Assembly (NCBI GenBank): GCA_964491435.1
Contig: CAZBGE010000004.1
Coordinates: forward strand, 1 to 51,460
DNA from: an uncultured Smithella sp.
GTDB taxonomy: Bacteria; Desulfobacterota; Syntrophia; Syntrophales; Smithellaceae
Length of the DNA: 51,460 nt
Direction of reading: 5' to 3'
Under the pieces are notes generated by a model. The model saw only the letters and a list, made by a program, of their open reading frames with translations, had not been told where the DNA came from and ran no database searches. This document shows positions 2,692-47,410 of this stretch, piece by piece. Position numbers and translations under genes: made by a program. How positions within the stretch are numbered: the first letter of the stretch is position 1; every line of letters starts with the position of its first letter.

Positions 2692-3847
2692 GGGGACGCT
2701 GTAAACTTATTAACTTTCTCATTGACAACGAAGTAAAATCAATCTATTGGGAACGTCATGCCAAGAGGAGCGCGTATAGATGCAGTCAATGCCGTCCATC
2801 ATATCATGGTGCGAGGCATTGAACGCAGGAAGATATTCGATTCTGATGCCGATCGGGATCATTTCCTTCATCGGATGGGCGAGATTCTTCTGGATACCGG
2901 AACAACCTGTTTTGCCTGGTCATTGATGCCCAATCATTTTCATCTGCTTTGCCGCACGGGAAACATACCGATTTCAACCGTGATGAGGCGACTGTTGACC
3001 GGATATGCCAACTGGTTTAACCGGAGCCGACGTCGGCACGGCCATCTTTTTCAGAATCGATTCAAATCCATTTTGTGCCAGGAGGATGCCTATCTTCTGG
3101 AACTGGTTCGCTACATTCATCTTAATCCGCTGCGTGCCGGTTTGGTTCAGGGATTGGACGGTTTGGACAGCTATCCGTATTCCGGCCACGGCGCCCTGAT
3201 GGAAAGAGATCATCATCCCTGGCAGGAAACGGAAGGGATTCTGGGGCTTTTTGGAAAGAGCCGGGATTTGGCGCGTCAGTCCTATCGACTGTTTGTGAAG
3301 CAGGGACTCGAACAGGGCAGACGGCATGATCTGGCAGGCGGGGGCTTAATCCGTAGCGCAGGCGGCTGGGAGGGGCTGAAGCAGAAAAGGGAGGAAGGGA
3401 CTTACCAGCGAAGTGATGAAAGAATACTGGGTGACAGCGATTTTGTCAGTCAGGTGTTGTCAAAGGCGGAAGAAGCAATCAAGAAAAGTCATTTGCTACG
3501 ATCCAGCGGCATGGACTTAGAGCAGGTTGCATTGCGCGTTTCGGAATTAATGGGGGTCAAACCCGAAGATGTCCGTGCAGCCGGGAAGCAGCAACACATC
3601 GTGAACGCCCGAAGCCTGTTTTGCTATTGGGCTGTTCGGGAGCTTGGAGAGACGATGGCCAGTTTGTCCCGCAATTTTGGCTTATCCATTCCGGCTATCA
3701 GTAAATCGGTTGTCCGGGGCCGGCAGATTGCCGAGGCCAACGGGTTCAAACTGATTGATAGTTAGCTTATTTGAATGCCAGAGTTAATGAAATACCTATA
3801 TAAAACAAGTACATTGAATGGTAAGTTAATAAGTAAACAGCGTCCCC
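2692..3847 (+). mobile_element. Putative intact element: RAYT-like transposase bounded by 25-bp inverted repeats
   Basis: 2692-2716 GGGGACGCTGTAAACTTATTAACTT and 3823-3847 AAGTTAATAAGTAAACAGCGTCCCC are 23/25 inverted; TTGACA at 2722-2727; no obvious target duplication. Confidence 0.7.
2758..3765 (+). CDS. REP-associated tyrosine transposase-like (Y1_Tnp) with C-terminal DnaA-C-like HTH
   Basis: HHIMVRG, HUH motif PNHFHLL, RYIHLNP catalytic Tyr; C-terminal ARSLFCYWAVRELGETMASLSRNFG. Confidence 0.88.
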   Translation: MPRGARIDAVNAVHHIMVRGIERRKIFDSDADRDHFLHRMGEILLDTGTTCFAWSLMPNHFHLLCRTGNIPISTVMRRLLTGYANWFNRSRRRHGHLFQNRFKSILCQEDAYLLELVRYIHLNPLRAGLVQGLDGLDSYPYSGHGALMERDHHPWQETEGILGLFGKSRDLARQSYRLFVKQGLEQGRRHDLAGGGLIRSAGGWEGLKQKREEGTYQRSDERILGDSDFVSQVLSKAEEAIKKSHLLRSSGMDLEQVALRVSELMGVKPEDVRAAGKQQHIVNARSLFCYWAVRELGETMASLSRNFGLSIPAISKSVVRGRQIAEANGFKLIDS

Positions 3848-5233
3848 TTAGGTTCTGATTTTTAAGTTTACTTGCAGATATTTTTTGAATGCTTCAAAAT
3901 CCTTGGACATTTTGATGGCGCCGCCTTCCCGGCGGGCCAGATCTTTCATGCTCTCCGGCGGCTCTGGGTCAATTCCCAGAAGATTCTTGATTTCATCCGG
4001 GAATTTGGCCGGGTGGGCGGTTTCCAGGCAAATAGCCAGCTTATCGTCGCCGGTTTTCTGAAAATACGCTTCCAGTCCCTTCCATCCCACAGCGCCGTGC
4101 TGTTCCAGTATGACACGGTAACGCTCGTAAACGCTCTTAATGGTTTGGCGGGTTTGTTCGTCGGTGACGCTGATGGAGAAAATGCGGCGGCGCATTTCCT
4201 CAAGATCGGGATAGCGATAGACATGGCCCGCGCGATCCACGGAACCGCCGTATAATTCAAAGAAACGCGCCAGATTGCTGGGATGTCCGACATTCATGGC
4301 GTTGGAAATGCAGGCCCGCGAGGGCGACACCTTCCGGTATTGGCCTGTCTCCAGAAAGACCGGAAATTCGTCATTTTCGTTGGTGGGCATGATCAGTTTG
4401 GACACCGGCAATCCCATCCGGCGGGCGTATTCGCAGCCCAGGGCGTCGCCGAAATTTCCGGAGGGGACGGAAACCACCACTTCCTCGCCGGCTCCCGCCA
4501 GTTGGGCATAGGCGTAAATATAATAAACAATCTGAGGCAAAATGCGGCCGAAATTAATGGAATTGGCCGAAGACAAATTAAAATGGGCCAAATCGGCGTC
4601 GGCGAAGGCTTCTTTGACCAGGTTCTGGCAGTCGTCGAATTTGCCATCCACGCACATGGCCTGAACGTTGCCACCAATGGTGTCGAGTTGCTTCTTCTGC
4701 ATCAGGCTCACTTCACCCGCAGGATACAAAATGGTCACATCAATGCCCGCAACGCCTTTATAAGCTTCTCCCACAGCGCTTCCTGTGTCGCCGGATGTCG
4801 CCACCAGGATATTGAGCCTTTCTCCCTCAGGCCGGCAGTAGCTCATGAGCCTCGCCATCATCCGGGCGGCAAAATCCTTAAAGGACGCGGTTGGCCCCTG
4901 ATCCAGGCGTAAAATAAACGCATGCGGGTAAACAGCCTCCAGCGGCACAGGGTAGTTATAAGCGTCCCTGACAATGGCTTCGAGAATATCTACTGGAAAT
5001 TCTCCGGAAAGAAAGGATTTGGCGACAAGCAGCGCGGCCTGCCAGTAGGGTTTGTCCCGAAGCGCCATCATATCATTCATGGAAAGCTGCGGAATGATAT
5101 CGGGAACAAACAAACCTTCGTCCGGCGCCTGTCCTTTAAGGAGCGCTTCCTTAAAAGACACGTTTCCGGTAAAAGGTGTAATTCCCGCAATATTATTTAC
5201 ATGACGATTCGTACTGTAATATCTGATGGCCAT
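3848..5233 (-). CDS. thrC: Threonine synthase
   Basis: GPTASFKDF PLP-Lys motif, ATSGDTG, PSGNFG, ETAHPAKF; start moved to MAIRYYST at 5233. Confidence 0.93.
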   Translation of the reverse strand: MAIRYYSTNRHVNNIAGITPFTGNVSFKEALLKGQAPDEGLFVPDIIPQLSMNDMMALRDKPYWQAALLVAKSFLSGEFPVDILEAIVRDAYNYPVPLEAVYPHAFILRLDQGPTASFKDFAARMMARLMSYCRPEGERLNILVATSGDTGSAVGEAYKGVAGIDVTILYPAGEVSLMQKKQLDTIGGNVQAMCVDGKFDDCQNLVKEAFADADLAHFNLSSANSINFGRILPQIVYYIYAYAQLAGAGEEVVVSVPSGNFGDALGCEYARRMGLPVSKLIMPTNENDEFPVFLETGQYRKVSPSRACISNAMNVGHPSNLARFFELYGGSVDRAGHVYRYPDLEEMRRRIFSISVTDEQTRQTIKSVYERYRVILEQHGAVGWKGLEAYFQKTGDDKLAICLETAHPAKFPDEIKNLLGIDPEPPESMKDLARREGGAIKMSKDFEAFKKYLQVNLKIRT

Positions 5234-33082: not shown

Positions 33083-36000
33083 TCAAAATGATTCGCCGGA
33101 CAACTTCTTTCCTGTAAACCACTTCTCTTCGATTCCTTTTGCTCCGGAAGCGAAAACGCTGACGGCAAATCCCGCTTTTTCCATAAAATCAACAACTTCA
33201 TTTTCACTCCGGAATCTGTTGGGCGCGCGGGTGATTTTTAATCTGGCGATTTCCGCCCAACGCTTCCAGGGGGTTCTTTTACCAGACGGAATGGTCGCTC
33301 TGATGACCAATGTTCCTGCCGGGGAAAGTTTTTCGTATATCCGTTGAAAAACGATTTGCACTTCCTGATCGGAAATTAAATGCAGCATATCCAGCATGAG
33401 CACATGATCAACAACTCCGTCAACCTCTGGCAGTTCGGGAGCTCGTCCAACTTCTATCCGACCGCGATTGCCGATGACACGCGAGGCGATCAAAACTCGC
33501 TCCTCATCCGGTTCTATGCCGTAAACTTCAGCCCGCGGATAAATTTCCAGAAGCCATGTGGCGGGAACGCCATAGCCGCAGCCGATATCCATGATTCTGC
33601 GGGGATTCCGCACATACCTGTCCAACTCTTTAAACATCGGGTCCGTCATCATTTTCATGCGGGCAAAGACGCGCGGATAGGCCGGCAGATGGCGGTAGCG
33701 CAAAACCGTCCGGCGCAGATGCTCTTTTGAACCAATCGTAAATTCACCCGCGGGAAATGAAACCGGAGCAAATATCTTTTTCATTAAAACCGGAAGGATA
33801 AAGAACACACCGAGCAAAGAATAACTGATGCCTAAAAATGAAACCACTCCGATGCTGCGCAACAGCGCGTGCTTGGCGAAAGCCAGTACGCCGAAACCGA
33901 TCAACGTGGTAAAGGCCGCCAGAAAGATCGCCAATTTGATGGTATGCATGGCCGGAAGTCTTTCGTCAAAGTTACGCTGGTAATGGCAAATATAATAAAC
34001 CGCATAATCATCCCCCATGCCCATAATGACCACCCACAGCATAATGCCGGGGATATCCAACGGCTGGCCGATTATTTTCAGCGTGCCCAGGGTGGCGATA
34101 AGCGCAAAGACAATCGGCGCCAGCACCGCCAGCGTCAACCGCCAGTCCAGAAAGTATAAAAAAGTGACCAGCGCAAGCCCGATGCTGATGATAACGGCGA
34201 TTTCCAGAAAAAGATTTTTGAGAACGTCGCTCAATCTCCTGTTGAATAAATCGCCGTCGAATATTCTGGCCAAACCGCTTTGGGAAACCCGGTCATGTAA
34301 AGTCTCCGCATGATAATTTTTTCCGGCGGCAAACAGGCTCAGTTGCGTAAAACCCTTGGGGCCTCTGGCGATGCCCAGCATTTCAAAATACTTTTCCGGT
34401 ATCTCGAATGTCCCCGGGGCATCCTGATGAATGATTCTCCAGAAAGGTTCAAATGCCGTGGGCGCAAAGCCATTTTCGCTGGCCGCCGCGCTCAGGTCGC
34501 GCTTCAGCGCCGCCTGGCGCTCTTTACTCCAGAAAGCGCGCCAGGCGGCAAAATTGCTGCGCGCCGTATCCTGAGACGGAAATAAAACGGAAGGAAGAAA
34601 TACCGGGGCGAGCTTTTCCTGCCGCACATCATTTTCCAGCAGGTTCATCAATTGTTCATTTCTTTTCTGCAATTGAGAAATATCCGGGGCTTCCAGAAGA
34701 GCGTAGCATTTGCCGGAAAAATTGCCCCAGACGCTTTGCATTTTCTTATCGGCGTTGATTGTTTCTTTGCTCATGGAATTCATGGCGTTCATATCCACGT
34801 TAAAGACCGGTTTGGCGAAAAAAAGCATGATCAGGGCAAAGACAACAGCGGCAATCAATTTCCAATTCGCGGCGGCGGCGATTTTTTTAACCGCGTTGAA
34901 AAGCAACGGATTGCTATGTTTGGCCGCCGGCGGCATGGCCGGAAATATTTTCGGAAACACCGAATGAACAAAAAGGAGAGCAAAGGTAACGCCCAGCGCG
35001 GCAAAAACGCCGATTTCCGCAAGAATTCTGAAATTACTGACCAGCAACAGCAGAAACGAACCAACGGTTGTTAAAACCGCCAGAAATTCCGCCGTCCAGA
35101 CCTCCCGCGCCACACGTTCGCCATAGGTGGTATGGGGCTGATCCAGAAAAAGCAGGTACGCGATTCCCAGATCAACCGTAAAGGCCATAATGGCGCCGCC
35201 GAAACCTACAGCCAGCATGGACATGGATTTGAACAAAAAAGAACAGACAAACAGCGCAGCCATCGCTCCCACGGCGGATGGCAAAAGCGCCAGCAAACCG
35301 ATGAGCGGACGGGGAAAGACAAACATCAGCAGAAGCGCTATGCCCAATGTGGTGAAGGTGACGGCCATCTGCACGTCGCGCCTGGCGATGGTTTCGTTAT
35401 CCAGAGCCGCGCGATAAGCGCCCGCGGACGACAGGATATACGGATGGCCGTCACCGGTCGTTCCCGCCAGTTCCCTGCGGCAATCGTCAAGAAGATTTTC
35501 GATTTTGGCGGCTGTGGACGTATCGGTTCCCGAACCTTTGATTCCGGCAATAATCAAAGCGTGCCTGCCGTCTTCGGAAATCAGTTGTCCCCGGTAAAAT
35601 TGGACTTTACCGGCGGGAAGCAGGGCAGACATCCGCCGTAAAATAACGCCGGAGAAACCCAGCGGATCTTTGGCGATTATTGCACTGCGGCCGATTCCTT
35701 CGAGTTGTTCCATATCCCGCCGGTTTTGGGCCATCGCCTCCCTGATTTTGTCCGGTGTTAAAAGTGGCTGGATTTTTTGTTCCAGTTCAGAAGCGCTCAA
35801 GAGCGCAGGCAGGTTATTGTTGACATGCGCCATGAGTTCGGGAAAATTGTTTGCGTCATCGCCGATGCCCACCTTGGTGAAAAGGCCGCTTTTGCTGAGT
35901 TTATCCGAAAGCTTGGCCGCCTTGTTCACCAGTTCGTCCCGATCAGGATTTGTCTGTTCAAGGTCGATGAATACTTTGTCCTGAATGGGCAGATGTTTAA

Positions 36001-36181
36001 TAACCTGACGCGCACCGGCCAGCACCGGATCGTTTTGCGGCACGGACTCTAAAATATCCGTTTCGATCTTTAAATATTTGGATTCCCAGAAAAAAAGCGC
36101 CGCCACAATCACGGCAACGACAAAAACAATGGACCATCTAATCTGATATTGACCTGCTGACATGAAAGCCTTTAGATTCAT
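33083..36181 (-). CDS. MMPL/RND-like exporter fused to a C-terminal class I SAM methyltransferase
   Basis: Two TM bundles (VDLGIAY; GMGDDYAVY) and C-terminal MDIGCGYG...IEPD...MLDMLH. Confidence 0.8.
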   Translation of the reverse strand: MNLKAFMSAGQYQIRWSIVFVVAVIVAALFFWESKYLKIETDILESVPQNDPVLAGARQVIKHLPIQDKVFIDLEQTNPDRDELVNKAAKLSDKLSKSGLFTKVGIGDDANNFPELMAHVNNNLPALLSASELEQKIQPLLTPDKIREAMAQNRRDMEQLEGIGRSAIIAKDPLGFSGVILRRMSALLPAGKVQFYRGQLISEDGRHALIIAGIKGSGTDTSTAAKIENLLDDCRRELAGTTGDGHPYILSSAGAYRAALDNETIARRDVQMAVTFTTLGIALLLMFVFPRPLIGLLALLPSAVGAMAALFVCSFLFKSMSMLAVGFGGAIMAFTVDLGIAYLLFLDQPHTTYGERVAREVWTAEFLAVLTTVGSFLLLLVSNFRILAEIGVFAALGVTFALLFVHSVFPKIFPAMPPAAKHSNPLLFNAVKKIAAAANWKLIAAVVFALIMLFFAKPVFNVDMNAMNSMSKETINADKKMQSVWGNFSGKCYALLEAPDISQLQKRNEQLMNLLENDVRQEKLAPVFLPSVLFPSQDTARSNFAAWRAFWSKERQAALKRDLSAAASENGFAPTAFEPFWRIIHQDAPGTFEIPEKYFEMLGIARGPKGFTQLSLFAAGKNYHAETLHDRVSQSGLARIFDGDLFNRRLSDVLKNLFLEIAVIISIGLALVTFLYFLDWRLTLAVLAPIVFALIATLGTLKIIGQPLDIPGIMLWVVIMGMGDDYAVYYICHYQRNFDERLPAMHTIKLAIFLAAFTTLIGFGVLAFAKHALLRSIGVVSFLGISYSLLGVFFILPVLMKKIFAPVSFPAGEFTIGSKEHLRRTVLRYRHLPAYPRVFARMKMMTDPMFKELDRYVRNPRRIMDIGCGYGVPATWLLEIYPRAEVYGIEPDEERVLIASRVIGNRGRIEVGRAPELPEVDGVVDHVLMLDMLHLISDQEVQIVFQRIYEKLSPAGTLVIRATIPSGKRTPWKRWAEIARLKITRAPNRFRSENEVVDFMEKAGFAVSVFASGAKGIEEKWFTGKKLSGESF

Positions 36182-38906: not shown

Positions 38907-41591
38907 GTGAAAAATAAAAACCTTGTCAGCATACCGGTCGTTCCCGCGGATGATCTACAGCAGGCGTTGCGCATCCGCCGTTTTTTAATGGCGTTTTCAG
39001 CTTACGTTATTTGCGGTATTTTATGTTATTTCGCCTTTCTTGCCGGCTTCGTCACCTCGGAAGCCTTTTTTGGATGGCTGACCGCCGCCATCTGTATAAA
39101 CGTAGTCCTGTACGGATTTTTCCGCTCGGGATTGAATCTGAAAATGGCCGATCCAAGTCTGACGGTAATACAGATGTGCACCGCCATCATCATGGTCATG
39201 TATGTCATGTCGTATGCCAATGAGTTACGCGGCGTCCTGTTGCTGATTTACGTCATTATTCTCCTCTTCGGCATCTTCCGCCTCAATACAAGGGGCTTTT
39301 TATATGTCAGTATCTTCACCCTGGTGACTTATGGAGGGGTCATCGCTCAACTTCATTTCTTCCGGCCCCGGGGCGTCAATTTTCATATGGAATTTCTGCA
39401 ATGGGTTGTACTGGCGGGCGTCCTGGCCCTTTTTTCCATCATCGGCGGACATATTTCCGGCCTCAGGGTCATGATTTCCAGAGACCGTTCCACCATCAAA
39501 CGCCTGACCGATAATATTCATGATGTCATTTTCGTCATGGATATGAATATGAAATATACTTACGTGAGTCCCTCTGTGAAATCTCTGAGGGGATACGAGC
39601 CGGAAGAGGTGATAATTCAGGATCCCCTTGATGCGCTGACTCCTTCCTCCCGGGAACTGGCCATGAAAAATTTAGCCGAAGTTCTGGAACTGGAAAAAAC
39701 AGAACATCAGGAAGACATATCCCGGACACTTCAATTGGAAATCAAACGAAACGACGGGACCACCGTGTGGACGGAAACGAAGTTTACCTTTATCCGGGAT
39801 AAAAATAATCAGCCGGTGAATATTCTTGGCGCAATGCGTGATATTACCGAACGTAAACAGGCGGAATCACAAAAAGAGGCCGCGCTCGAAGTCATACGCC
39901 AGGGTGAGGAAAAATACCGCAACATCCTCGAAAGCATTCAGGAAGGCTATTTTGAAGTTGACCTTGCCGGCAACTTCACCTTTGTCAATGATTCCATGTC
40001 CCGGCTCACCGGATGCTCCAAAGAGGAATTAATCGGCATGAATCATAAACAGTTTACAAGCCCGGAAACCGCAAAAGAAGTTTTTCATGCCTTTAATAAC
40101 GTTTACAAAACAGGGGTGCCTTCCAAAGCGTTCGATTGGCGGATTATCAGAAAAGACGGCGCTGAAGGATTCATTGAAACATCCATCATGCTACAGAGAA
40201 ATTCATCAGGCAAGCCGACAGGATTCAAGGGAATGATCCGCGACATTACCGAACGCAAGCGGATCGAGCAGCAACTGAACTATATGGCGACACACGACGC
40301 CTTAACCGGACTGCCCAACCGCCTGATGTTCAACCAGTTGTTAAATCAGGCCATACGGTCCGCGCTGCGTCACAAACGTCAGTTAGCCGTTTTCTTTATT
40401 GATCTGGATCGTTTCAAGATTATCAACGATACACTGGGGCACGAAGCGGGAGATCGGTTGTTGAAGGAGATCGCCAGACGGTTTAGAAGCGCATTGCGCT
40501 CGGTTGATGTTGTCGGGCGTCTGGGCGGAGACGAATTCGTTGTCCTGATCGAGGAAGTGGATGATTTGAATCAAGTGGCCATTGTCGCCCATAAGATACT
40601 TTCCAACGCCATAAAACCGATGGTTCTCATGGGTGAAGAATGCCGTGTAACCGCCAGCATCGGCATCAGCATATATCCCAAGGATGGGCAGGACGAACAA
40701 TCCTTGATGAAGAATGCGGATATCGCCATGTATTTTGCGAAAGAAGAGGGCAAGAACAACTTCCAGTTCTACTCCAAGGATATTCAGTCGCAATCCACCG
40801 AACGCCTGGGGATAGAAACAAATCTGCGCCTTGCATTGGAGCGCAAGGAATTTTCCCTGCACTACCAAGCCAGGGTTGATTTCAGAACCGGCATGATTAC
40901 AGGCGTGGAGGCCCTTCTACGCTGGCAAAGTCCGTCTCTTGGTTCAGTCACCCCCACGCAATTCATCCCGATCGCCGAAACAACAGGGTTGATCGTGCCT
41001 ATCGGCCGGTGGGTGATGAAAACAGCGTGCGCCCAGAATATGGACTGGCAAAGCCAGGGACTTCCTCCCGTCTGTATATCGGTCAATTTATCGCTTCGCC
41101 AACTCATGGACGACAGGTTCCTGGAAGACATCAAATCCGCACTGGAGGATTCCGGAATGGCGCCGCATCTTCTGGAATTGGAAATCACGGAAAGTATGGT
41201 CATGCATAATCCCGCGCATCTGATTGCGGTGCTGCACAGCATCAAGAAACTGGGCGTGCGGCTTGCCATCGATGATTTCGGCACAGGATACTCTTCTCTC
41301 GCCCAGCTAAAAAACTTTCCGGTGGACACCCTCAAGGTGGACAGATCCTTTATCCGCAATCTGCCTCAAGACTCCGAGGACAAAGCGATTACCGAGGCGA
41401 TCATCGCCATGGGCAGAATCCTTAGCCTCACAGTTGTCGCTGAAGGGGTGGAAACACAGGCGCAGGAGGATTTTTTACGTAATCACATCTGTGATGAAAT
41501 GCAGGGTTTTTATTTCAGTAAGCCCATCGAACCGGATCAATTTGGCGAACTCCTGCGCAAGCATAACCTCCTTTCCCAACAATCCGCCTGA
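38907..41591 (+). CDS. Membrane-anchored PAS-PAS-GGDEF-EAL protein
   Basis: N-terminal TM bundle, two PAS/PAC (RDITERK), intact GGDEF, EALLR, DDFGTGYSS. Confidence 0.92.
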   Translation: MKNKNLVSIPVVPADDLQQALRIRRFLMAFSAYVICGILCYFAFLAGFVTSEAFFGWLTAAICINVVLYGFFRSGLNLKMADPSLTVIQMCTAIIMVMYVMSYANELRGVLLLIYVIILLFGIFRLNTRGFLYVSIFTLVTYGGVIAQLHFFRPRGVNFHMEFLQWVVLAGVLALFSIIGGHISGLRVMISRDRSTIKRLTDNIHDVIFVMDMNMKYTYVSPSVKSLRGYEPEEVIIQDPLDALTPSSRELAMKNLAEVLELEKTEHQEDISRTLQLEIKRNDGTTVWTETKFTFIRDKNNQPVNILGAMRDITERKQAESQKEAALEVIRQGEEKYRNILESIQEGYFEVDLAGNFTFVNDSMSRLTGCSKEELIGMNHKQFTSPETAKEVFHAFNNVYKTGVPSKAFDWRIIRKDGAEGFIETSIMLQRNSSGKPTGFKGMIRDITERKRIEQQLNYMATHDALTGLPNRLMFNQLLNQAIRSALRHKRQLAVFFIDLDRFKIINDTLGHEAGDRLLKEIARRFRSALRSVDVVGRLGGDEFVVLIEEVDDLNQVAIVAHKILSNAIKPMVLMGEECRVTASIGISIYPKDGQDEQSLMKNADIAMYFAKEEGKNNFQFYSKDIQSQSTERLGIETNLRLALERKEFSLHYQARVDFRTGMITGVEALLRWQSPSLGSVTPTQFIPIAETTGLIVPIGRWVMKTACAQNMDWQSQGLPPVCISVNLSLRQLMDDRFLEDIKSALEDSGMAPHLLELEITESMVMHNPAHLIAVLHSIKKLGVRLAIDDFGTGYSSLAQLKNFPVDTLKVDRSFIRNLPQDSEDKAITEAIIAMGRILSLTVVAEGVETQAQEDFLRNHICDEMQGFYFSKPIEPDQFGELLRKHNLLSQQSA

Positions 41592-41680: not shown

Positions 41681-43540
41681 TCACGCTGTTGTATGGAAAG
41701 GGATGGTAATTCTATATACGCCTCCGGATAAAACCGTCTGCACCGGGTAGAGCGATTTTTCGTAAACTTTCAACATGGCCCGGTTGTTTTCCAGAACATC
41801 GGCCTTCAATCCGGCAATGCCTTCTTCCCGGGCGGACCGGATCAAGAGGTTGAAAAGATAGGTTGAAATGCCCCTGCCCTGATACTGCTCATCCACAATG
41901 AATGCTGTGTCGGCGAAGGAATCGCCGCGGGATTTGACATAGCGGGCCTCGCCGATAATTTTCTCCACGCCGGATTCTTCAATGATCGCCACAATGGACA
42001 TGGTGTAGCGGTAATCCACGTTGACATATTCCTGCATTTTTTTATGGGGCATGGTTTTGATCGGGCTGAAGTAGCGATAATAGACCGCCTGATCGGAAAA
42101 CCGGTAAAACAAACGGCGCATTTCTTCTTCATCGGACGGCTTGATGGCCCGGAAACGGACCGTCAGATTTTCCTTAAATTTATGCGAGCAGGCGATTTTC
42201 TCCGGATAGAGATGACCGGAGCCGGCAAAATAAATCTGGTCGGCGTAAATCATCTTTTCTTCCTTGGCCTGCCGGACCAGATCGGCGCGGTCATCGGGAT
42301 GCGCAATTTCAATGAGCGCCTGCGCCCGTTCCCGGAGCGTCCTGCCCATCAGATAGGCCACGCCGTATTCCGTCACGACAACGTCCATGGATTCACGATT
42401 GGTAAACTGGAAAGGATACTTATCCAGAGAGAGCAGAATATTGGATTCTCCCCTGCGGTTGCGGCTGGGCAGGGCAAAAACGTTGCGGCCGTTTCTGGAA
42501 AGCGTCGCCCCCCAGAAAAGCTCCTGCACATTGCCGGGACCGGCGGTAACATTTCCCTTTCCGGAGTGCAGGGCGATGTTGCCGGTCAAATCCACTTTCC
42601 GCGCCGGGAAAATGGCTACCATATTGTCGTTGAGTCCGATGGTGCGGGGATCCATCACGATATCCTGGGGCTGGAATTCCACAAGCGCATTTAAATCCAG
42701 CCAGTTCATCAACTCTTTGGTTCCGATAATATAGGAGGCGCAGGTCTTGCCGCGAAAAACGCCTTTATAGCGGTTGGTCACAGCCCCGCTTTTGATGAGA
42801 TCCATCAAAGCATCGGTAAAGAAAGGGGAATGCACGCCCAGATTTTTTTTTGTGGACAGGACTTTGGCCAACGCCTCATAAAGCGGCCCGATGCCATAGG
42901 AAATACAACTGCCGTCCGGAATGACCGACGCCACGTTCGCGGCAATTTTCAGATAAAGCTCCTGCAGCGGCCAACGGCCCACATAATAAGGCGGCTCGGT
43001 CGCCTCGACCAGATAGTTAAAATCATCCATGTTCACCATGGTGTCGCCCATAGTCCGGGGGATCTGGGCGCTGATTTCGCCGACAACGATTTTAGCCATT
43101 TCCATGGCTTGCCGCTCCACGGAAGCACCCACCAGATAAGCATAACCGTTTTCATCGGGAGGGGTCACCTGAATGAAGGCCACATCAATATTTATGGCGC
43201 CGGTTTTAAAAAGCCAGGCCACGCGCGAGAAGCGGCTGGGAATCAAATCCACTCTCCCCTGACTGATGGCATCGGAGGCCAGCCATCCGGAAAAAAATGT
43301 CTTTAAACGGAATTTTCGGGCATACCGCTCATCAATGGCCACTGCATCGCCAAGGCTGACCAGTTGGATCAACTCCAGATCCTGCAGGTTGAACTGAGTG
43401 GATTCCATCAGGTGCTTGACCAGCGTCCGGGGCTCGGCCATACCCGTCCCCAGAAAAATACTCATGCCCGGATCAATTTTCGACAAGGCTTCCTCGGGCG
43501 CTACGATTTTTTGCTTCCACATATCGGCGCTCTCATTCAA
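41681..43540 (-). CDS. Acetyl-CoA hydrolase/transferase-fold protein fused to a C-terminal GNAT
   Basis: Family I CoA-transferase-like body (VVTEYGVAYL.G.TLRERAQALIEIAHPDDR); GNAT with YYRYFS and QYQGRGIS. Confidence 0.85.
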   Translation of the reverse strand: MNESADMWKQKIVAPEEALSKIDPGMSIFLGTGMAEPRTLVKHLMESTQFNLQDLELIQLVSLGDAVAIDERYARKFRLKTFFSGWLASDAISQGRVDLIPSRFSRVAWLFKTGAINIDVAFIQVTPPDENGYAYLVGASVERQAMEMAKIVVGEISAQIPRTMGDTMVNMDDFNYLVEATEPPYYVGRWPLQELYLKIAANVASVIPDGSCISYGIGPLYEALAKVLSTKKNLGVHSPFFTDALMDLIKSGAVTNRYKGVFRGKTCASYIIGTKELMNWLDLNALVEFQPQDIVMDPRTIGLNDNMVAIFPARKVDLTGNIALHSGKGNVTAGPGNVQELFWGATLSRNGRNVFALPSRNRRGESNILLSLDKYPFQFTNRESMDVVVTEYGVAYLMGRTLRERAQALIEIAHPDDRADLVRQAKEEKMIYADQIYFAGSGHLYPEKIACSHKFKENLTVRFRAIKPSDEEEMRRLFYRFSDQAVYYRYFSPIKTMPHKKMQEYVNVDYRYTMSIVAIIEESGVEKIIGEARYVKSRGDSFADTAFIVDEQYQGRGISTYLFNLLIRSAREEGIAGLKADVLENNRAMLKVYEKSLYPVQTVLSGGVYRITIPFHTTA

Positions 43541-44726
43541 ACATTTCTTTATCCCGCCGGTACCAGTAATCGGGGATAATGCGATACATCAATCGGGAGA
43601 AAGGTCCGATGTATTCATTTTTTCTTTTATCAAACTGGCAGGCGTGAATAATCATGTCCTTAATCGCGTCTTTATGGCCGCCCTTGTTAAAGATATTATA
43701 GGCGCAGGAAAAAAGCGGGCTGTACATATTTTTCTTTTCCAGATACTTATAGACATTGCGAATCGTGTTGGGCCCTTCCGGAGTGCCGTCGATTCTTCCC
43801 AGCACCTTCAGATTGGTTTCAATCGGATTGCCGGTATAGAGATCATAGAAATACTTTCCGTAGCGGTAATTCTTGCTGGCCAGGGAAGAAACGGTTACAT
43901 ACATGTCGCCAACGCCGGCCTGCGAGTGAAAAGCCTGAAAACCGCCTCCCAGCAGACGGGTGAGCGACCGGATTTCCACGCCGGAACGGGCAAAGATGGT
44001 GCCGGGGATCGAATCACCCAGATCCAGCGAATCCGTCAATCCCTTGATATTGGCCACAATATTTTTCAGCGCGCCGCAGGCTTCCACCCCGATTTTGTCA
44101 AAATTATAATAAGCATTGAGCTCTTTGCGGTTGAATATCAGCAAATGATCACGAATAATATTGGCCGTGCGCCGGTTCCCGGCGACAGTTACGCAAACCG
44201 GTTTACCCAGAGCAATATCTATATCAAAAAAGGGCCCGCCGATACAGGCGACCTGACACTTCTGCTCCAGATTATACAAATGGTTATGAATAAGTTGTGA
44301 AGGAGTAATCAACTCGCTGGTTTTTTCGTCGGCGATCAACCCCTTGATGGGCGAAATCAGGCAGGTATCCCCCGCTTTTTTATCAATGATCGGTTTGAGA
44401 TAATTGAGCAATTCCGGCAGACGATTCATGGTGACGGCCAGAATAATAAAGTCATTGTTCTCGACAATATGTTCAAGATCATTGGTCGCATAAACCTTCG
44501 GCGATAAACGAGGAACCAGATCCATGCCGCCCAGACATTTGGCCAGATCCTCCGTCAAATGAATGGGATTCAGATGGTCACGGTTAATGGCCTTGCAGAC
44601 ATCCGAGTTGTGGTAATAAATAGCAATGCGCTTGTTATCGCGTCCCAGCTTGTAGGCAAACGACGTGCCCAGACGCCCCGGTCCGATAATGGCGACTCTT
44701 GTCGTATCTAAATTGGAAACAATCAT
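43533..44726 (-). CDS. Divergent NAD(P)H-dependent glycerol-3-phosphate dehydrogenase-like protein
   Basis: IIGPGRLG Rossmann motif, PIKG, GALKN catalytic Lys, GVGDMYVT. Confidence 0.7.
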   Translation of the reverse strand: MIVSNLDTTRVAIIGPGRLGTSFAYKLGRDNKRIAIYYHNSDVCKAINRDHLNPIHLTEDLAKCLGGMDLVPRLSPKVYATNDLEHIVENNDFIILAVTMNRLPELLNYLKPIIDKKAGDTCLISPIKGLIADEKTSELITPSQLIHNHLYNLEQKCQVACIGGPFFDIDIALGKPVCVTVAGNRRTANIIRDHLLIFNRKELNAYYNFDKIGVEACGALKNIVANIKGLTDSLDLGDSIPGTIFARSGVEIRSLTRLLGGGFQAFHSQAGVGDMYVTVSSLASKNYRYGKYFYDLYTGNPIETNLKVLGRIDGTPEGPNTIRNVYKYLEKKNMYSPLFSCAYNIFNKGGHKDAIKDMIIHACQFDKRKNEYIGPFSRLMYRIIPDYWYRRDKEMFE

Positions 44727-44837: not shown

Positions 44838-45557
44838 ATGGCAGAGGATTGTTTAGAAACCAGAAGAAAACAATACTTCATGGAAAAGAGCAAATATCTT
44901 ATGCCCCGGGAAAAAGTTCTTCATTATCCAAACGGCGCCGTCAAGGAAAAGAAATATGTGCTGGAAGGAAAAATGGAGCGTGAATATACAACTTTCTTCT
45001 CCAACGGCCAGATCATGGCTCAGGTTCATTTTACCCGCGGCGCAAAAAACGGTCCCGCCGTCAGCTATTACGCCAACGGACAGATTCGGGAAAAAGCCCA
45101 TTTCATCAATGATAAAATGAACGGTCTCTACGTTTCCTATTTCGAAAACGGACACGTGCGGGAAGAGGAAAACTATCAAGATGGAAAACTGCACGGTTCC
45201 TACCGCCGCTACTATAAAACAGGCGAGCTGCGGGAAGAAGAAAATTTTCAAAACGGAAAGTTCGAAGGAGAATATGTCTGCTATTATAAAAGCGGACAGA
45301 TCAAGGAAAAGGGATTCTTTAAAAACGATAAACGCGAAGGCGACTATATTGCTTATTTCAAAAACGGACAGCTCAAAGAAAAGGCGGTTTACAAAAAAGG
45401 AAATCTTTGCGGCAAATTTCTGGCCTTTAATGAAAACGGCGACCCGATTGACCCAGGCGCCGTAAGCGAAGACGATTCGTCGCGCACCTGGGATGAAAAA
45501 GATGTGGCCAATTTACTGCATGATCTGACTCATTTTGAAACAAAAAAGAAAGAATAA
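44838..45557 (+). CDS. MORN-variant repeat protein (YwqK-like)
   Basis: About seven ~24-aa repeats of the form G.Y..YY.NGQ..E...Y.DG; start may be 44880. Confidence 0.8.
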   Translation: MAEDCLETRRKQYFMEKSKYLMPREKVLHYPNGAVKEKKYVLEGKMEREYTTFFSNGQIMAQVHFTRGAKNGPAVSYYANGQIREKAHFINDKMNGLYVSYFENGHVREEENYQDGKLHGSYRRYYKTGELREEENFQNGKFEGEYVCYYKSGQIKEKGFFKNDKREGDYIAYFKNGQLKEKAVYKKGNLCGKFLAFNENGDPIDPGAVSEDDSSRTWDEKDVANLLHDLTHFETKKKE

Positions 45558-45581: not shown

Positions 45582-46457
45582 ATGATTAACACCATCCTCA
45601 TGCCGGTTGACGGATCGGCCAACAGTTTCACCGCAGTTGATTACGGCGCCTATCTTGCGCCAAAACTTGAGGCCTCCCTGACAGGATTGCACGTCATTGA
45701 CGTCAATCTCCTTCAAGGGCCGATGATGACGGATATGTCCGCCACCGCCGAAATGCCATCCTGTGACGTTTTTTTCGAAGAGATTGAAACATCTCTGCAG
45801 GAAAAAGCTGATGACATATTGAAAAATTTTAGAGATCGATGCAAAACGGCAGGCGTTTCCTGTCTTGCCAAAAAAAATATCGGCGCCATCAAATCCGCCA
45901 TCATTGAAGAAGCCGAAACGTCTGATTTAGTTGTCATGGCAAAAAATGGGAAGCGCTTTCATCTCAAAGAAGGCGGCATGATCGGCTCAGTCACCGAAGT
46001 TGTGATTCGCCGTTCAGGAAAGCCAGTTATGGTTATTCCCGAATCCTTTCAAAAAATTAAAAGCATAGGAATGGCTTACGACGGCAGCGCTTCCGCCAGA
46101 GAAGCGTTACAACTGACGCTGAATGTTTCCAAGCAGACCAAATGGCCGGTGACCGTCGTGATCATCAGCGCGGATACAGCCAAAGCGGCGGATTTATCGG
46201 CACAGGTCAAGTCCATCGCCCAAGAAGGCCTGGCGGGCTGCGAAGTTATCATTTCATCAGGCAAGGAAGCAGATGAAATCCTCAAATTCATCAGGGCGGG
46301 TTCGATAGAACTGATGGCCATGGGGGCATACGGCCACAACCGTCTGCGTGAACTGATCCTGGGCAGCACAACCTCCCAAATCATCCAGAAAAGCCCCATT
46401 CCCATATTACTGGTCCGTGACCCTTTTAAAATCCGGAAACGCAGCGTCAAACGGTGA
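45582..46457 (+). CDS. Universal stress protein (two USP domains)
   Basis: ILMPVDGS; MGAYGHNRLRELILGSTT. Confidence 0.9.
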   Translation: MINTILMPVDGSANSFTAVDYGAYLAPKLEASLTGLHVIDVNLLQGPMMTDMSATAEMPSCDVFFEEIETSLQEKADDILKNFRDRCKTAGVSCLAKKNIGAIKSAIIEEAETSDLVVMAKNGKRFHLKEGGMIGSVTEVVIRRSGKPVMVIPESFQKIKSIGMAYDGSASAREALQLTLNVSKQTKWPVTVVIISADTAKAADLSAQVKSIAQEGLAGCEVIISSGKEADEILKFIRAGSIELMAMGAYGHNRLRELILGSTTSQIIQKSPIPILLVRDPFKIRKRSVKR

Positions 46458-46573
46458 TTGCTGAATTTCTGCGCGCATCCCGGACAAAAGGCTATGGTTA
46501 ACGCAAGGTGTTTGCCAACGTGTTGCGATGAAAAATGGAAATAAGTCCGCCTGAGCAAAAGGAGAAAATCATC

Positions 46574-47410
46574 ATGTTCAAAAACATTCTTGTTCCAGTT
46601 GACGGATCGGCCAACAGCGCCACCGCAGTCAATTACGGCATTTATATCGCGCCAAAATTCGAGGCATCCCTGACGGGGCTCCACGTCATCGACATATTTC
46701 TCATTCAGGGACCGGTAACGACGGACATTTCCGCCGCCGGAATGCCGCCCTGTGACGGTTTTTTTGAAGTCGTCGAAGCATCTTTGGAAGAAAAAGCCGA
46801 TTTAATATTAAAAAACTTTCAGGAACGCTGCCAAACAGCCGGCGTTGCCTGCTCTGCCCAAAAAAGCATCGGTAAAATCAGCGACAACATCATTGAAGAA
46901 GCAGGAAACGCTGATTTGATTTTAATGGCGAAAAAAGGAGAGCATTTTCACTTAAAGGAAGGGGGGCTGCTCGGGTCGGTGGCTGAAGCCGTGATTCGCC
47001 ATTCAGGAAAACCAGTGATGGTCGTTCCGGAATCCTATTGCGAAATCGAAAGCATGGGACTGGCCTATGACGGCAGCGCCTCTGCAAAAAAAGCATTGGC
47101 TTTGTCTTTGAGCATCTCCGAACAGGCCAAATGGCCGATTACCGTTGTGATTGTCAGCGCGGATACGGCAAAAGCGGCGGCTTTATCGGAACAGGTCGAG
47201 GACATGGCCCAAAAAGGCTTGGCCGATTGCGAAATCATCATTTCGTCAGGCAAAGAAGCGGATGAAATCCTGAAGTTCATTCGTGAAGGTTCCGTAGAGT
47301 TGATGGTTATGGGCGCATACGGCCATAACCGTCTGCGCGAATTGATCCTGGGCAGCACAACCTCCCACATCATTCAGAAAAGCCCGGTTCCGGTGCTTCT
47401 GATCCGTTGA
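46574..47410 (+). CDS. Universal stress protein (two USP domains), tandem paralog
   Basis: MFKNILVPVDGS; MGAYGHNRLRELILGSTT; start moved to 46574 (GGAG RBS). Confidence 0.9.
   Translation: MFKNILVPVDGSANSATAVNYGIYIAPKFEASLTGLHVIDIFLIQGPVTTDISAAGMPPCDGFFEVVEASLEEKADLILKNFQERCQTAGVACSAQKSIGKISDNIIEEAGNADLILMAKKGEHFHLKEGGLLGSVAEAVIRHSGKPVMVVPESYCEIESMGLAYDGSASAKKALALSLSISEQAKWPITVVIVSADTAKAAALSEQVEDMAQKGLADCEIIISSGKEADEILKFIREGSVELMVMGAYGHNRLRELILGSTTSHIIQKSPVPVLLIR

Follow-up and report, generated by a model that had tools for sequence, protein, structure and literature searches.

A Pat-Like Acetyltransferase with a Predicted CoA-Transferase Pseudoenzyme Domain in an Uncultured Smithella sp.

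What role can be played by a coenzyme A (CoA)-transferase domain that has lost its catalytic glutamate and is fused to an acetyltransferase? The question is raised by a gene in a 51,460-nt stretch of DNA from an uncultured Smithella sp. (contig CAZBGE010000004.1 of assembly GCA_964491435.1, positions 1-51,460; hereafter, the window), in which an intact open reading frame (ORF) on the minus strand (41681-43540) encodes a protein with a CoA-transferase-like N-terminal half and a GNAT C-terminal half. A sequence-only reading of this DNA had proposed an acetyltransferase that uses a dead CoA-transferase fold as an acyl-CoA sensor. From the analyses described here, we lean toward a related view, that the protein is a Pat-type lysine acyl(acetyl)transferase in which the usual regulatory module is replaced by a 4-hydroxybutyrate-CoA-transferase-like domain that gates the GNAT.

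The ORF is 619 aa long if a TTG codon is taken as its start. Every close homolog has the N terminus MWKQK, and the ATG at 43522, which has a GAGAG-like element upstream, was therefore taken as the start; the real coding sequence is most likely 41681-43522, with a product of 613 aa. Residue numbers refer to the 619-aa version, such that those of the 613-aa protein are lower by six. The 8 bp by which the gene seems to overlap its upstream neighbor are an artifact of choosing the longest ORF, and the upstream stop codon actually lies 10 nt before the ATG.

The transferase-like half lacks the family I catalytic residues

The N-terminal half (residues 7-430; 42251-43522, on the minus strand as are all features of this gene) matches the Pfam models AcetylCoA_hydro (PF02550; residues 7-182, E = 1.3e-18) and AcetylCoA_hyd_C (PF13336; residues 273-425, E = 7.4e-46), both over the cut-off, and has a partial, under-cut-off match to the NCBIfam butyryl-CoA:acetate CoA-transferase model. 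A phmmer search of the PDB returns 4-hydroxybutyrate CoA-transferases as the best matches (9vag, 1.2e-77; 3eh7, 1.6e-76; 3d3u; 2oas; 3gk7), with the set used for motif alignment spanning E = 1e-77 to 2e-63. The two-lobed alpha/beta fold of family I CoA-transferases is thus present by Pfam (PF02550 plus PF13336), by PDB alignment, and by Foldseek (see below).

The catalytic machinery is a different matter. The sequence-only reading suggested that LGVHSPFFTD lacks the catalytic Glu, and the PDB alignment agrees: this motif (residues 234-243; 42812-42841) aligns with LGVHTEMISD or LGIHTEMFSD of 9vag, 3eh7, 3d3u, and 2oas, and the column of the catalytic Glu is occupied by Pro239, whose codon was checked as CCT (42824-42826). 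The Glu is E238 in the Clostridium aminobutyricum enzyme (3GK7; PMC11659651) and Glu249 in RipA (PMC3180442), and is the family I nucleophile that makes a glutamyl-CoA thioester (PMC11659651, PMC3180442). A comparison with 76 relatives that keep the Glu shows that the protein retains most of the positions that define the fold, but that a cluster of positions that are otherwise 80-100% conserved is altered. Besides the E-to-P change at position 239, these include N to S at 157 (an Asn conserved at 95%), Q to S at 214 (the Gln of the QxGhG gating loop), Y to M at 278, Q to N at 321, and GGQxDF to GNVQEL at 336-341. The gating loop reads SYGIG, with G-I-G kept and the Gln changed to Ser; in other members of the clade the glycines are lost too. 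Judged from the alignments and from model confidence, the GxGGQxDF loop is degenerate (residues 325-341, HSGKGNVTAGPGNVQEL; 42518-42568), with SGxGGQxDF replaced by AGPGNVQEL and with a clade-specific insertion; the CoA-contacting Gln is gone. In the C. aminobutyricum enzyme this residue, Gln337 of GGQ, is one of two reported to hydrogen bond with CoA (PMC11659651).

Neither the Glu nucleophile nor the GxGG(Q) loop that characterize family I enzymes is therefore present. Together with the loss of the gating-loop Gln, the loss of the nucleophile and of the GGQ CoA/oxyanion loop argues that the domain cannot run the canonical ping-pong glutamyl-CoA mechanism. The sequence-only reading recognized that another Glu taking over the site would undo its case, and we looked for a compensating acidic residue conserved solely in the Glu-less orthogroup; none was convincing, with E222, E383, and D386 lying in or beside columns that are already Asp, Asn, or His in active enzymes.

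Conservation of the loss and selection on the domain

The loss is a shared property of this lineage. All 121 close homologs (76-95% identity), which come from Smithellaceae/Syntrophaceae metagenome-assembled genomes, have H-S-P, and among 22 orthologs at 60-91% identity, drawn from the genus and from further families of its order, the nucleophile site is non-acidic in every case (P, Y, F, L, or I), within flanks, LG[VI]H[ST]-x-[FM][FIM]TD, that are invariant in the same 22. The Glu-to-Pro change that had been read from one sequence is thus kept in close homologs, and Glu is absent from more distant orthologs. Conversion of GAA or GAG to CCT requires at least two base changes, and because the loss is also common to homologs and orthologs, it does not reflect chance or sequencing error.

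The domain that has lost these residues is nonetheless well maintained. Pairwise Nei-Gojobori comparisons within the genus put the ratio of nonsynonymous to synonymous substitution rates (dN/dS) at 0.050 in the transferase-like half and at 0.053 in the GNAT half, values that are approximate with dS at about 1.2 and near saturation. The two domains diverge in step, with equal amino acid identity over the range from 91% to 60%, and every relative has an intact ORF. In the orthogroup, about 58 residues are shared by 90% or more of the members yet are rare in active enzymes, and many of these clade-specific conserved positions are basic (R38, R103, R106, R189, R257, R314, K315, K328, and R360). 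Because selection on the transferase-like domain equals that on the GNAT, these comparisons argue that this half is a maintained, repurposed pseudoenzyme domain, and not one in decay; purifying selection of this strength fits a retained noncatalytic role.

A Pat-type GNAT domain in a well-predicted structure

The C-terminal half (residues 455-612; 41705-42178) is a Pat-type GNAT acyltransferase domain, joined to the transferase-like half by a linker (residues 431-454; 42179-42250) that contains a short helix in the AlphaFold2 model. One Pfam GNAT model matches at residues 514-595, GNAT models together cover residues 460-595 approximately, and NCBIfam NF058543 (acetyltransferase Pat) gives a partial match that is under the cut-off (E = 5e-21). 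The resemblance to Pat enzymes noted in the sequence-only reading is well supported in the PDB, with matches to PatZ (9it0, 7.6e-17), Streptomyces lividans PatA (4nxy, 1.2e-15), mycobacterial Pat (2e-13 and 9e-10, the latter MtPat), and Sulfolobus Pat, and the Pat-type N-terminal extension (YYRYFSP) is present. Motif A of GNATs, the acetyl-CoA pyrophosphate loop, has the form Q/R-x-x-G-x-G/A (PMC8556138), and is kept as QGRGIS (residues 554-559; 41864-41881), the predicted acyl-CoA pyrophosphate-binding loop, in which the last position is Ser; across the family, this position is G, A, or S. Asp544 (codon at 41909-41911) aligns with the general-base Glu of Pat, which a manual count on the alignment places at E809 of PatZ. 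Of the 101 fusion representatives that have a residue in this column, 69 have E and 27 have D, making 96 with an acidic residue. By sequence, then, this half is Pat-like and appears to be competent.

An AlphaFold2 model built from a 71-sequence alignment has a mean predicted local distance difference test score (pLDDT) of 92.5 and a predicted template modeling score (pTM) of 0.91, the latter suggesting that the two halves have a defined arrangement. The sole weak stretch is residues 321-340, corresponding to the former GGQ loop and its insertion, where block means of pLDDT are 70 and 64, and residues 330-333 fall below 50. In Foldseek searches, the N-terminal half matches 2oas, 3gk7, 3d3u, and RipA with template modeling scores (TMt) of 0.85-0.93, and the C-terminal half matches the GNAT of S. 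lividans PatA in complex with the C-terminal domain of Acs (4u5y; TMt 0.93); no PDB chain holding both halves was found by Foldseek.

Comparison with known acetyltransferases and CoA-transferases

The precedent invoked by the sequence-only reading, in which Pat enzymes use a dead acyl-CoA synthetase domain as a regulator, is borne out by the literature: the regulatory domains of Pat types I and II are inactive homologs of nucleoside diphosphate (NDP)-forming acyl-CoA synthetases that bind acetyl-CoA (PMC8556138; PMC12184503). In PatZ, the inactive synthetase-like domain binds acetyl-CoA, acts allosterically with cooperative activation, and contributes to the Acs pocket (PMC12184503; PMC8556138); it is also structural, with roles in tetramer and substrate-pocket formation (PMC12184503). 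The fusion resembles PatZ/Pat (YfiQ; type I; Salmonella enterica and Escherichia coli; 9it0/9isq) in having a C-terminal Pat-type GNAT preceded by a large domain that derives from a CoA-thioester enzyme and has lost catalysis. It differs in that the regulatory fold of PatZ is an NDP-forming acyl-CoA synthetase of ~700 aa, whereas that of the fusion is a family I CoA-transferase of ~425 aa, and in that the general base is Glu in PatZ but Asp in the fusion. S. lividans PatA (type II; 4nxy, 4u5y) is the nearest structural match to the GNAT half, but has its GNAT at the N terminus and its synthetase-like domain at the C terminus. The regulatory module of types I and II is absent from the fusion, with no Pfam matches in it to CoA_binding, Succ_CoA_lig, or ATP-grasp. 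The type III enzymes (MtPat/MsPat with a cAMP domain, actinobacterial ACT-GNAT proteins, and Myxococcus xanthus ActC with an NADP-binding domain) share the arrangement of a 300- to 400-aa N-terminal regulatory domain followed by a GNAT, but their regulatory folds and presumed ligands differ from that of the fusion.

Among the CoA-transferases, AbfT (3GK7/3QDQ) and the related 2OAS, 3EH7, 9VAG, and RipA resemble the fusion in having the two-lobed alpha/beta fold and many of the residues that define it, at 29-34% identity in the Foldseek alignments; unlike the fusion, they have the Glu nucleophile, the GGQ loop, the Gln of QxGhG, and Asn157, and no GNAT is fused to them. ThnP, from anaerobic naphthalene degradation (PMC11659651), can be set beside this clade by its description as a family I/Cat1 relative without the canonical Glu, but it is a stand-alone, active enzyme with the QxGhG loop kept.

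Reviews of 2021 and 2024 and a structural survey of PatZ from 2025 recognize five acetyltransferase types sorted by regulatory domain, these domains being NDP-forming synthetase-like, cAMP-binding, ACT, and NADP-binding; a CoA-transferase fold is not among the types listed in these published classifications, and full-text literature searches found no described CoA-transferase/GNAT fusion. With the catalytic features of family I and the regulatory domains of types I to III both missing, and with the sequence and fold of a Pat GNAT both present, the protein is best described, from its sequence, as a Pat-like acetyltransferase with a regulatory fold that is absent from the types listed there.

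Paralogs and the wider fusion family

This genome encodes four such fusions, one with the Glu and three without. The gene described here (C4) has HSP at the nucleophile and GPGN at the GGQ loop; the others have CSH and GFEG (C19:5815-7557, minus strand), HSL and VAGL (C47:17503-19344, plus strand), and HTE with a kept GIGGQ loop (C9:16651-18480, plus strand). The C4, C9, and C47 orthogroups recur across the genus, each keeping its own state, and relatives of the C19 type (~49-50% identity) likewise have His at the nucleophile site. The acidic base and motif A of the GNAT are kept in all four paralogs. The genome also encodes six stand-alone CoA-transferase paralogs, all with HTE and GGx. A classical Pat of 886 aa is encoded as well, as are a single SIR2 protein and 22 AMP-binding ligases. 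The C19 fusion is divergent from an adjoining methylmalonyl-CoA mutase gene, the C47 fusion is followed by a BioB-like radical S-adenosylmethionine (SAM) gene, and the C9 fusion by a 4Fe-4S protein gene; no conserved partner was seen around these three paralogs.

An exhaustive phmmer search of cluster representatives at E<=1e-30 gave 970 matches, many of them 600- to 640-aa fusions with 29-60% identity. By source names, the family occurs in Smithellaceae/Syntrophaceae, Planctomycetota (Phycisphaerae, Sedimentisphaerales, and Thermoguttaceae), Lentisphaerae, Bradymonadales, and archaea of the Halobacteriota, and it amounts to thousands of database clusters, all annotated just as 'GNAT family N-acetyltransferase'. 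Among 82 full-length fusion representatives, the nucleophile position is Glu in 42, Asp in 13, and another residue in 27, although the share without Glu (40/82) is biased upward, the query by which this list was ranked being itself Glu-less; 34 of 43 stand-alone enzymes have Glu. A profile search with the fusion alignment yielded 120 consensus-like fusions, 113 with both Glu and the GxGG(Q) loop, and seven, all archaeal, with Asp. The Glu loss that the sequence-only reading expected to be conserved among fusions therefore holds for this clade and its orthologs, but not for the family at large.

In trees of the transferase domain (FastTree, and IQ-TREE in quick mode), the stand-alone enzymes form one well-supported clade, and the protein falls in an 11-member clade (98% SH-type support) that is wholly non-Glu (P/A/S/H/K). 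The trees need 19-20 changes between Glu and non-Glu, or 12 between acidic and non-acidic residues. With Glu in most sampled fusions and repeated changes in the trees, it is most likely that the fusion arose with a live transferase and that the nucleophile was then lost many times, with a minimum of about 12-19 losses. The dead domain, judging by the family members nearest to the consensus, which keep the Glu, is not what defines the design; of the dead-transferase design proposed by the sequence-only reading, the Glu-to-Pro change, its conservation, and the Pat-type GNAT stand, but the deadness of the domain as the defining property does not, with Glu-less forms having arisen repeatedly.

Two groups in these searches have other residues at the nucleophile site. 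The Halobacteriota fusions P0272-P0277 and P0280, one of them at locus L054, have Asp there, with GGR for GGQ; an E-to-D change reportedly turned glutaconate CoA-transferase into a hydrolase. Seven stand-alone homologs of 420-436 aa (P0221, P0223, P0233, P0241, P0242, P0246, and P0252) have Gly at the nucleophile position and an intact GxGGQ loop, and may be enzymes that, like ThnP, work without the Glu.

Gene neighborhoods

A divergent GpsA-like dehydrogenase gene (397 aa; 43533-44726, minus strand) precedes the fusion and is a probable operon partner; it is recognized from Pfam and NCBIfam matches that are all under the curated cut-offs, including every NCBIfam GpsA model. The pairing occurs in 11 of 11 same-genus loci but in none of the 10 orthologous loci drawn from the order's other families, and any further neighbor in the Syntrophales loci recurs at three of them at most. 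In one Syntrophales relative (locus L024), a gene recognized by eye as encoding an AMP-forming acyl-CoA ligase (3197-4903, plus strand) is convergent with the Glu-less ortholog, and its product has a PKSxxGK motif at the C-terminal end, the usual context of the Pat target lysine.

Neighborhoods in the wider family were examined at seven loci from about five independent lineages, a small sample of Glu-keeping members plus one archaeal Asp member. (The Glu-keeping loci, from Planctomycetota, Bradymonadales, and others, are named L052, L053, and L055-L059, with the fusion gene at 5001/6001 in each.) At six of the seven, a gene for a ~700-aa ADP-forming acetate-CoA ligase (ACD) is directly upstream of the fusion on the same strand, with a gap of -4 to +57 nt. 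NCBIfam TIGR02717 matches at cut-off in two of three ADP-forming synthetases tested, and a quick motif search of these neighbors for the phosphohistidine motif G[HNQSA]AG[AS] found none. Acs genes are near the fusion at three of the seven loci: at L059, where a Hist_deacetyl gene also lies 11 nt downstream of the fusion; at another locus, where Acs is divergently upstream; and at the archaeal locus, where Acs is 450 nt downstream and there is no ligase gene upstream. The L059 arrangement of writer (GNAT), eraser (Hist_deacetyl), and acetyl-CoA synthetase is like that of AcuABC of Bacillus subtilis, except that AcuA is a single-domain GNAT with its regulator in trans. As far as gene content can tell, these are the neighbors that one would expect around a module for the reversible acetylation of acetate/acetyl-CoA enzymes. 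The neighboring ADP-forming synthetase shares the fold of the dead regulatory domain in Pat type I, and the ligase-fusion loci may represent a module of writer, eraser, and target, and an unfused counterpart of the type I domain pair.

Elsewhere in the window, a membrane-anchored PAS-PAS-GGDEF-EAL protein of 894 aa is encoded convergently with the fusion (38907-41591, plus strand), its gene ending 90 nt from the fusion stop codon. Two tandem paralogous genes for double universal stress protein (Usp) products of 291 aa each (45582-46457 and 46535-47410, plus strand) are preceded by a MORN-repeat protein gene (44838-45557), and in a 1031-aa protein (33083-36181, minus strand) an MMPL-family transporter region is followed at the C terminus by a SAM-methyltransferase domain, an unusual pairing.

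Proposed role of the fusion and alternative explanations

If the protein is a Pat-type acyltransferase gated by its N-terminal half, as we favor, the pseudo-transferase domain would act like the regulatory domain of PatZ or MtPat. Its most likely ligands would be a CoA thioester, CoA, or a carboxylate, and it might also, or instead, build an oligomer and a substrate-docking surface. The presence of 22 AMP-forming ligase genes and one sirtuin gene in the genome suggests acyl-CoA-forming enzymes as likely targets. The protein would descend from Glu-keeping fusions, whose genes in other phyla usually come right after those of ADP-forming acetyl-CoA synthetases, and the four paralogs may answer to different signals.

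Several observations weigh against this interpretation. That the domain binds and senses acyl-CoA is something that we infer, and the equivalent of Gln337, one of the two named CoA contacts, is lost from a loop that is predicted to be disordered, such that CoA binding may be weakened or changed. An acidic residue elsewhere near the Pro239 site might substitute for the Glu. The missing Glu alone is in any case no proof that all CoA-transfer chemistry is lost, because ThnP, a family I/Cat1 protein in which the canonical Glu is missing, is active as an intramolecular CoA-transferase (PMC11659651). The general base of the GNAT is Asp rather than Glu. Finally, the neighbors in Syntrophales point to no target, and the adjacency of the GpsA-like gene is confined to the genus.

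One alternative is that the domain senses no metabolite and serves in scaffolding or targeting only, either oligomerizing the enzyme or pairing with active CoA-transferase paralogs or partners and bringing the GNAT to them. Such a role would accommodate the degraded CoA-contact motifs and the retained fold of a dimer-forming family (4-hydroxybutyrate CoA-transferases are dimers and tetramers), the genome provides six stand-alone Glu-keeping paralogs as potential partners, and the PatZ regulatory domain likewise has a structural role. However, the clade-conserved Arg and Lys residues and the pocket-lining positions around the former active site, where HS-x-FFTD is invariant, suggest a maintained binding site, and the fusion genes are not co-localized with stand-alone transferase genes; we regard a purely structural role as possible but fairly unlikely. 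A quite different alternative, that the domain is still an enzyme, working without Glu as a ThnP-like intramolecular transferase on dicarboxylyl-CoA or as an acyl-CoA hydrolase and thereby supplying or removing the acyl donor of the GNAT, draws on the activity of ThnP itself, on the strong purifying selection, and on the abundance of dicarboxylyl-CoA intermediates in syntrophic metabolism (PMC8942843). It is at odds with the state of the remaining motifs, since ThnP has QxGhG but the fusion has Ser for its Gln, GGQ lost, and an insertion with low pLDDT in the loop. Moreover, the nucleophile site is free to vary among orthologs, as for a noncatalytic site, and no new conserved acidic replacement is seen, E222, E383, and D386 being explained by columns of the active enzymes. 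We consider this improbable.

The GNAT half might, alternatively, not acetylate proteins at all, and N-acylate a small molecule (an amine, an amino acid, or an antibiotic-like compound) bound by the transferase-like domain. GNATs are functionally diverse, and there are weak NCBIfam matches to ArsN1 and RimI, although these are far under their cut-offs. The best sequence and fold matches are nonetheless all of the Pat type, including the YYRYFSP extension, and genes of this family adjoin acetyl-CoA synthetase and deacetylase genes, so that small-molecule acylation seems about as improbable as a Glu-independent transferase. Least credible by far is that the transferase-like half is a decaying remnant without a function of its own. 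The lost catalytic motifs might suggest this, but it is contradicted by the selection analysis, in which the dN/dS of this half (0.05) equals that of the GNAT, by the intact ORF in all relatives, by 60-91% identity of the domain across the order, and by a fold that is predicted at high confidence.

A more inclusive reading would join the Glu-keeping and Glu-less proteins: the fusions would add a sixth type, and a widespread one, to the lysine acyltransferases of prokaryotes, in which Glu-keeping members act as covalent ratio sensors or local suppliers of acyl-CoA, and in which the Syntrophales have turned three of four paralogs into noncovalent sensors. We offer this as a speculative proposal that is unlikely to hold. 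If it is true, occupancy of the glutamyl-CoA thioester in Glu-keeping members would report the ratio of acyl-CoA to carboxylate, the domain would gate acylation of the adjoining ADP-forming or AMP-forming acetyl-CoA synthetases, and the three Glu-less Syntrophales paralogs, this one included, would be tuned to different acyl-CoA pools.

Implications for acyl-CoA metabolism in syntrophs

The preferred interpretation, a Pat-type acyltransferase gated by a pseudo-transferase domain, has consequences both for how enzyme folds become regulators and for the control of acylation in syntrophs. The paralog series with and without Glu offers a natural test of a CoA-thioester enzyme fold becoming a regulator. 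The proteins of syntrophs are heavily modified by acylation from reactive acyl-CoAs, with writers that are not known (PMC8942843); the fusions would be direct candidates for enzymatic control of this protein acylation. Through the fusion design, the acylation of proteins is probably tied to the acyl-CoA metabolism of a syntrophic bacterium.

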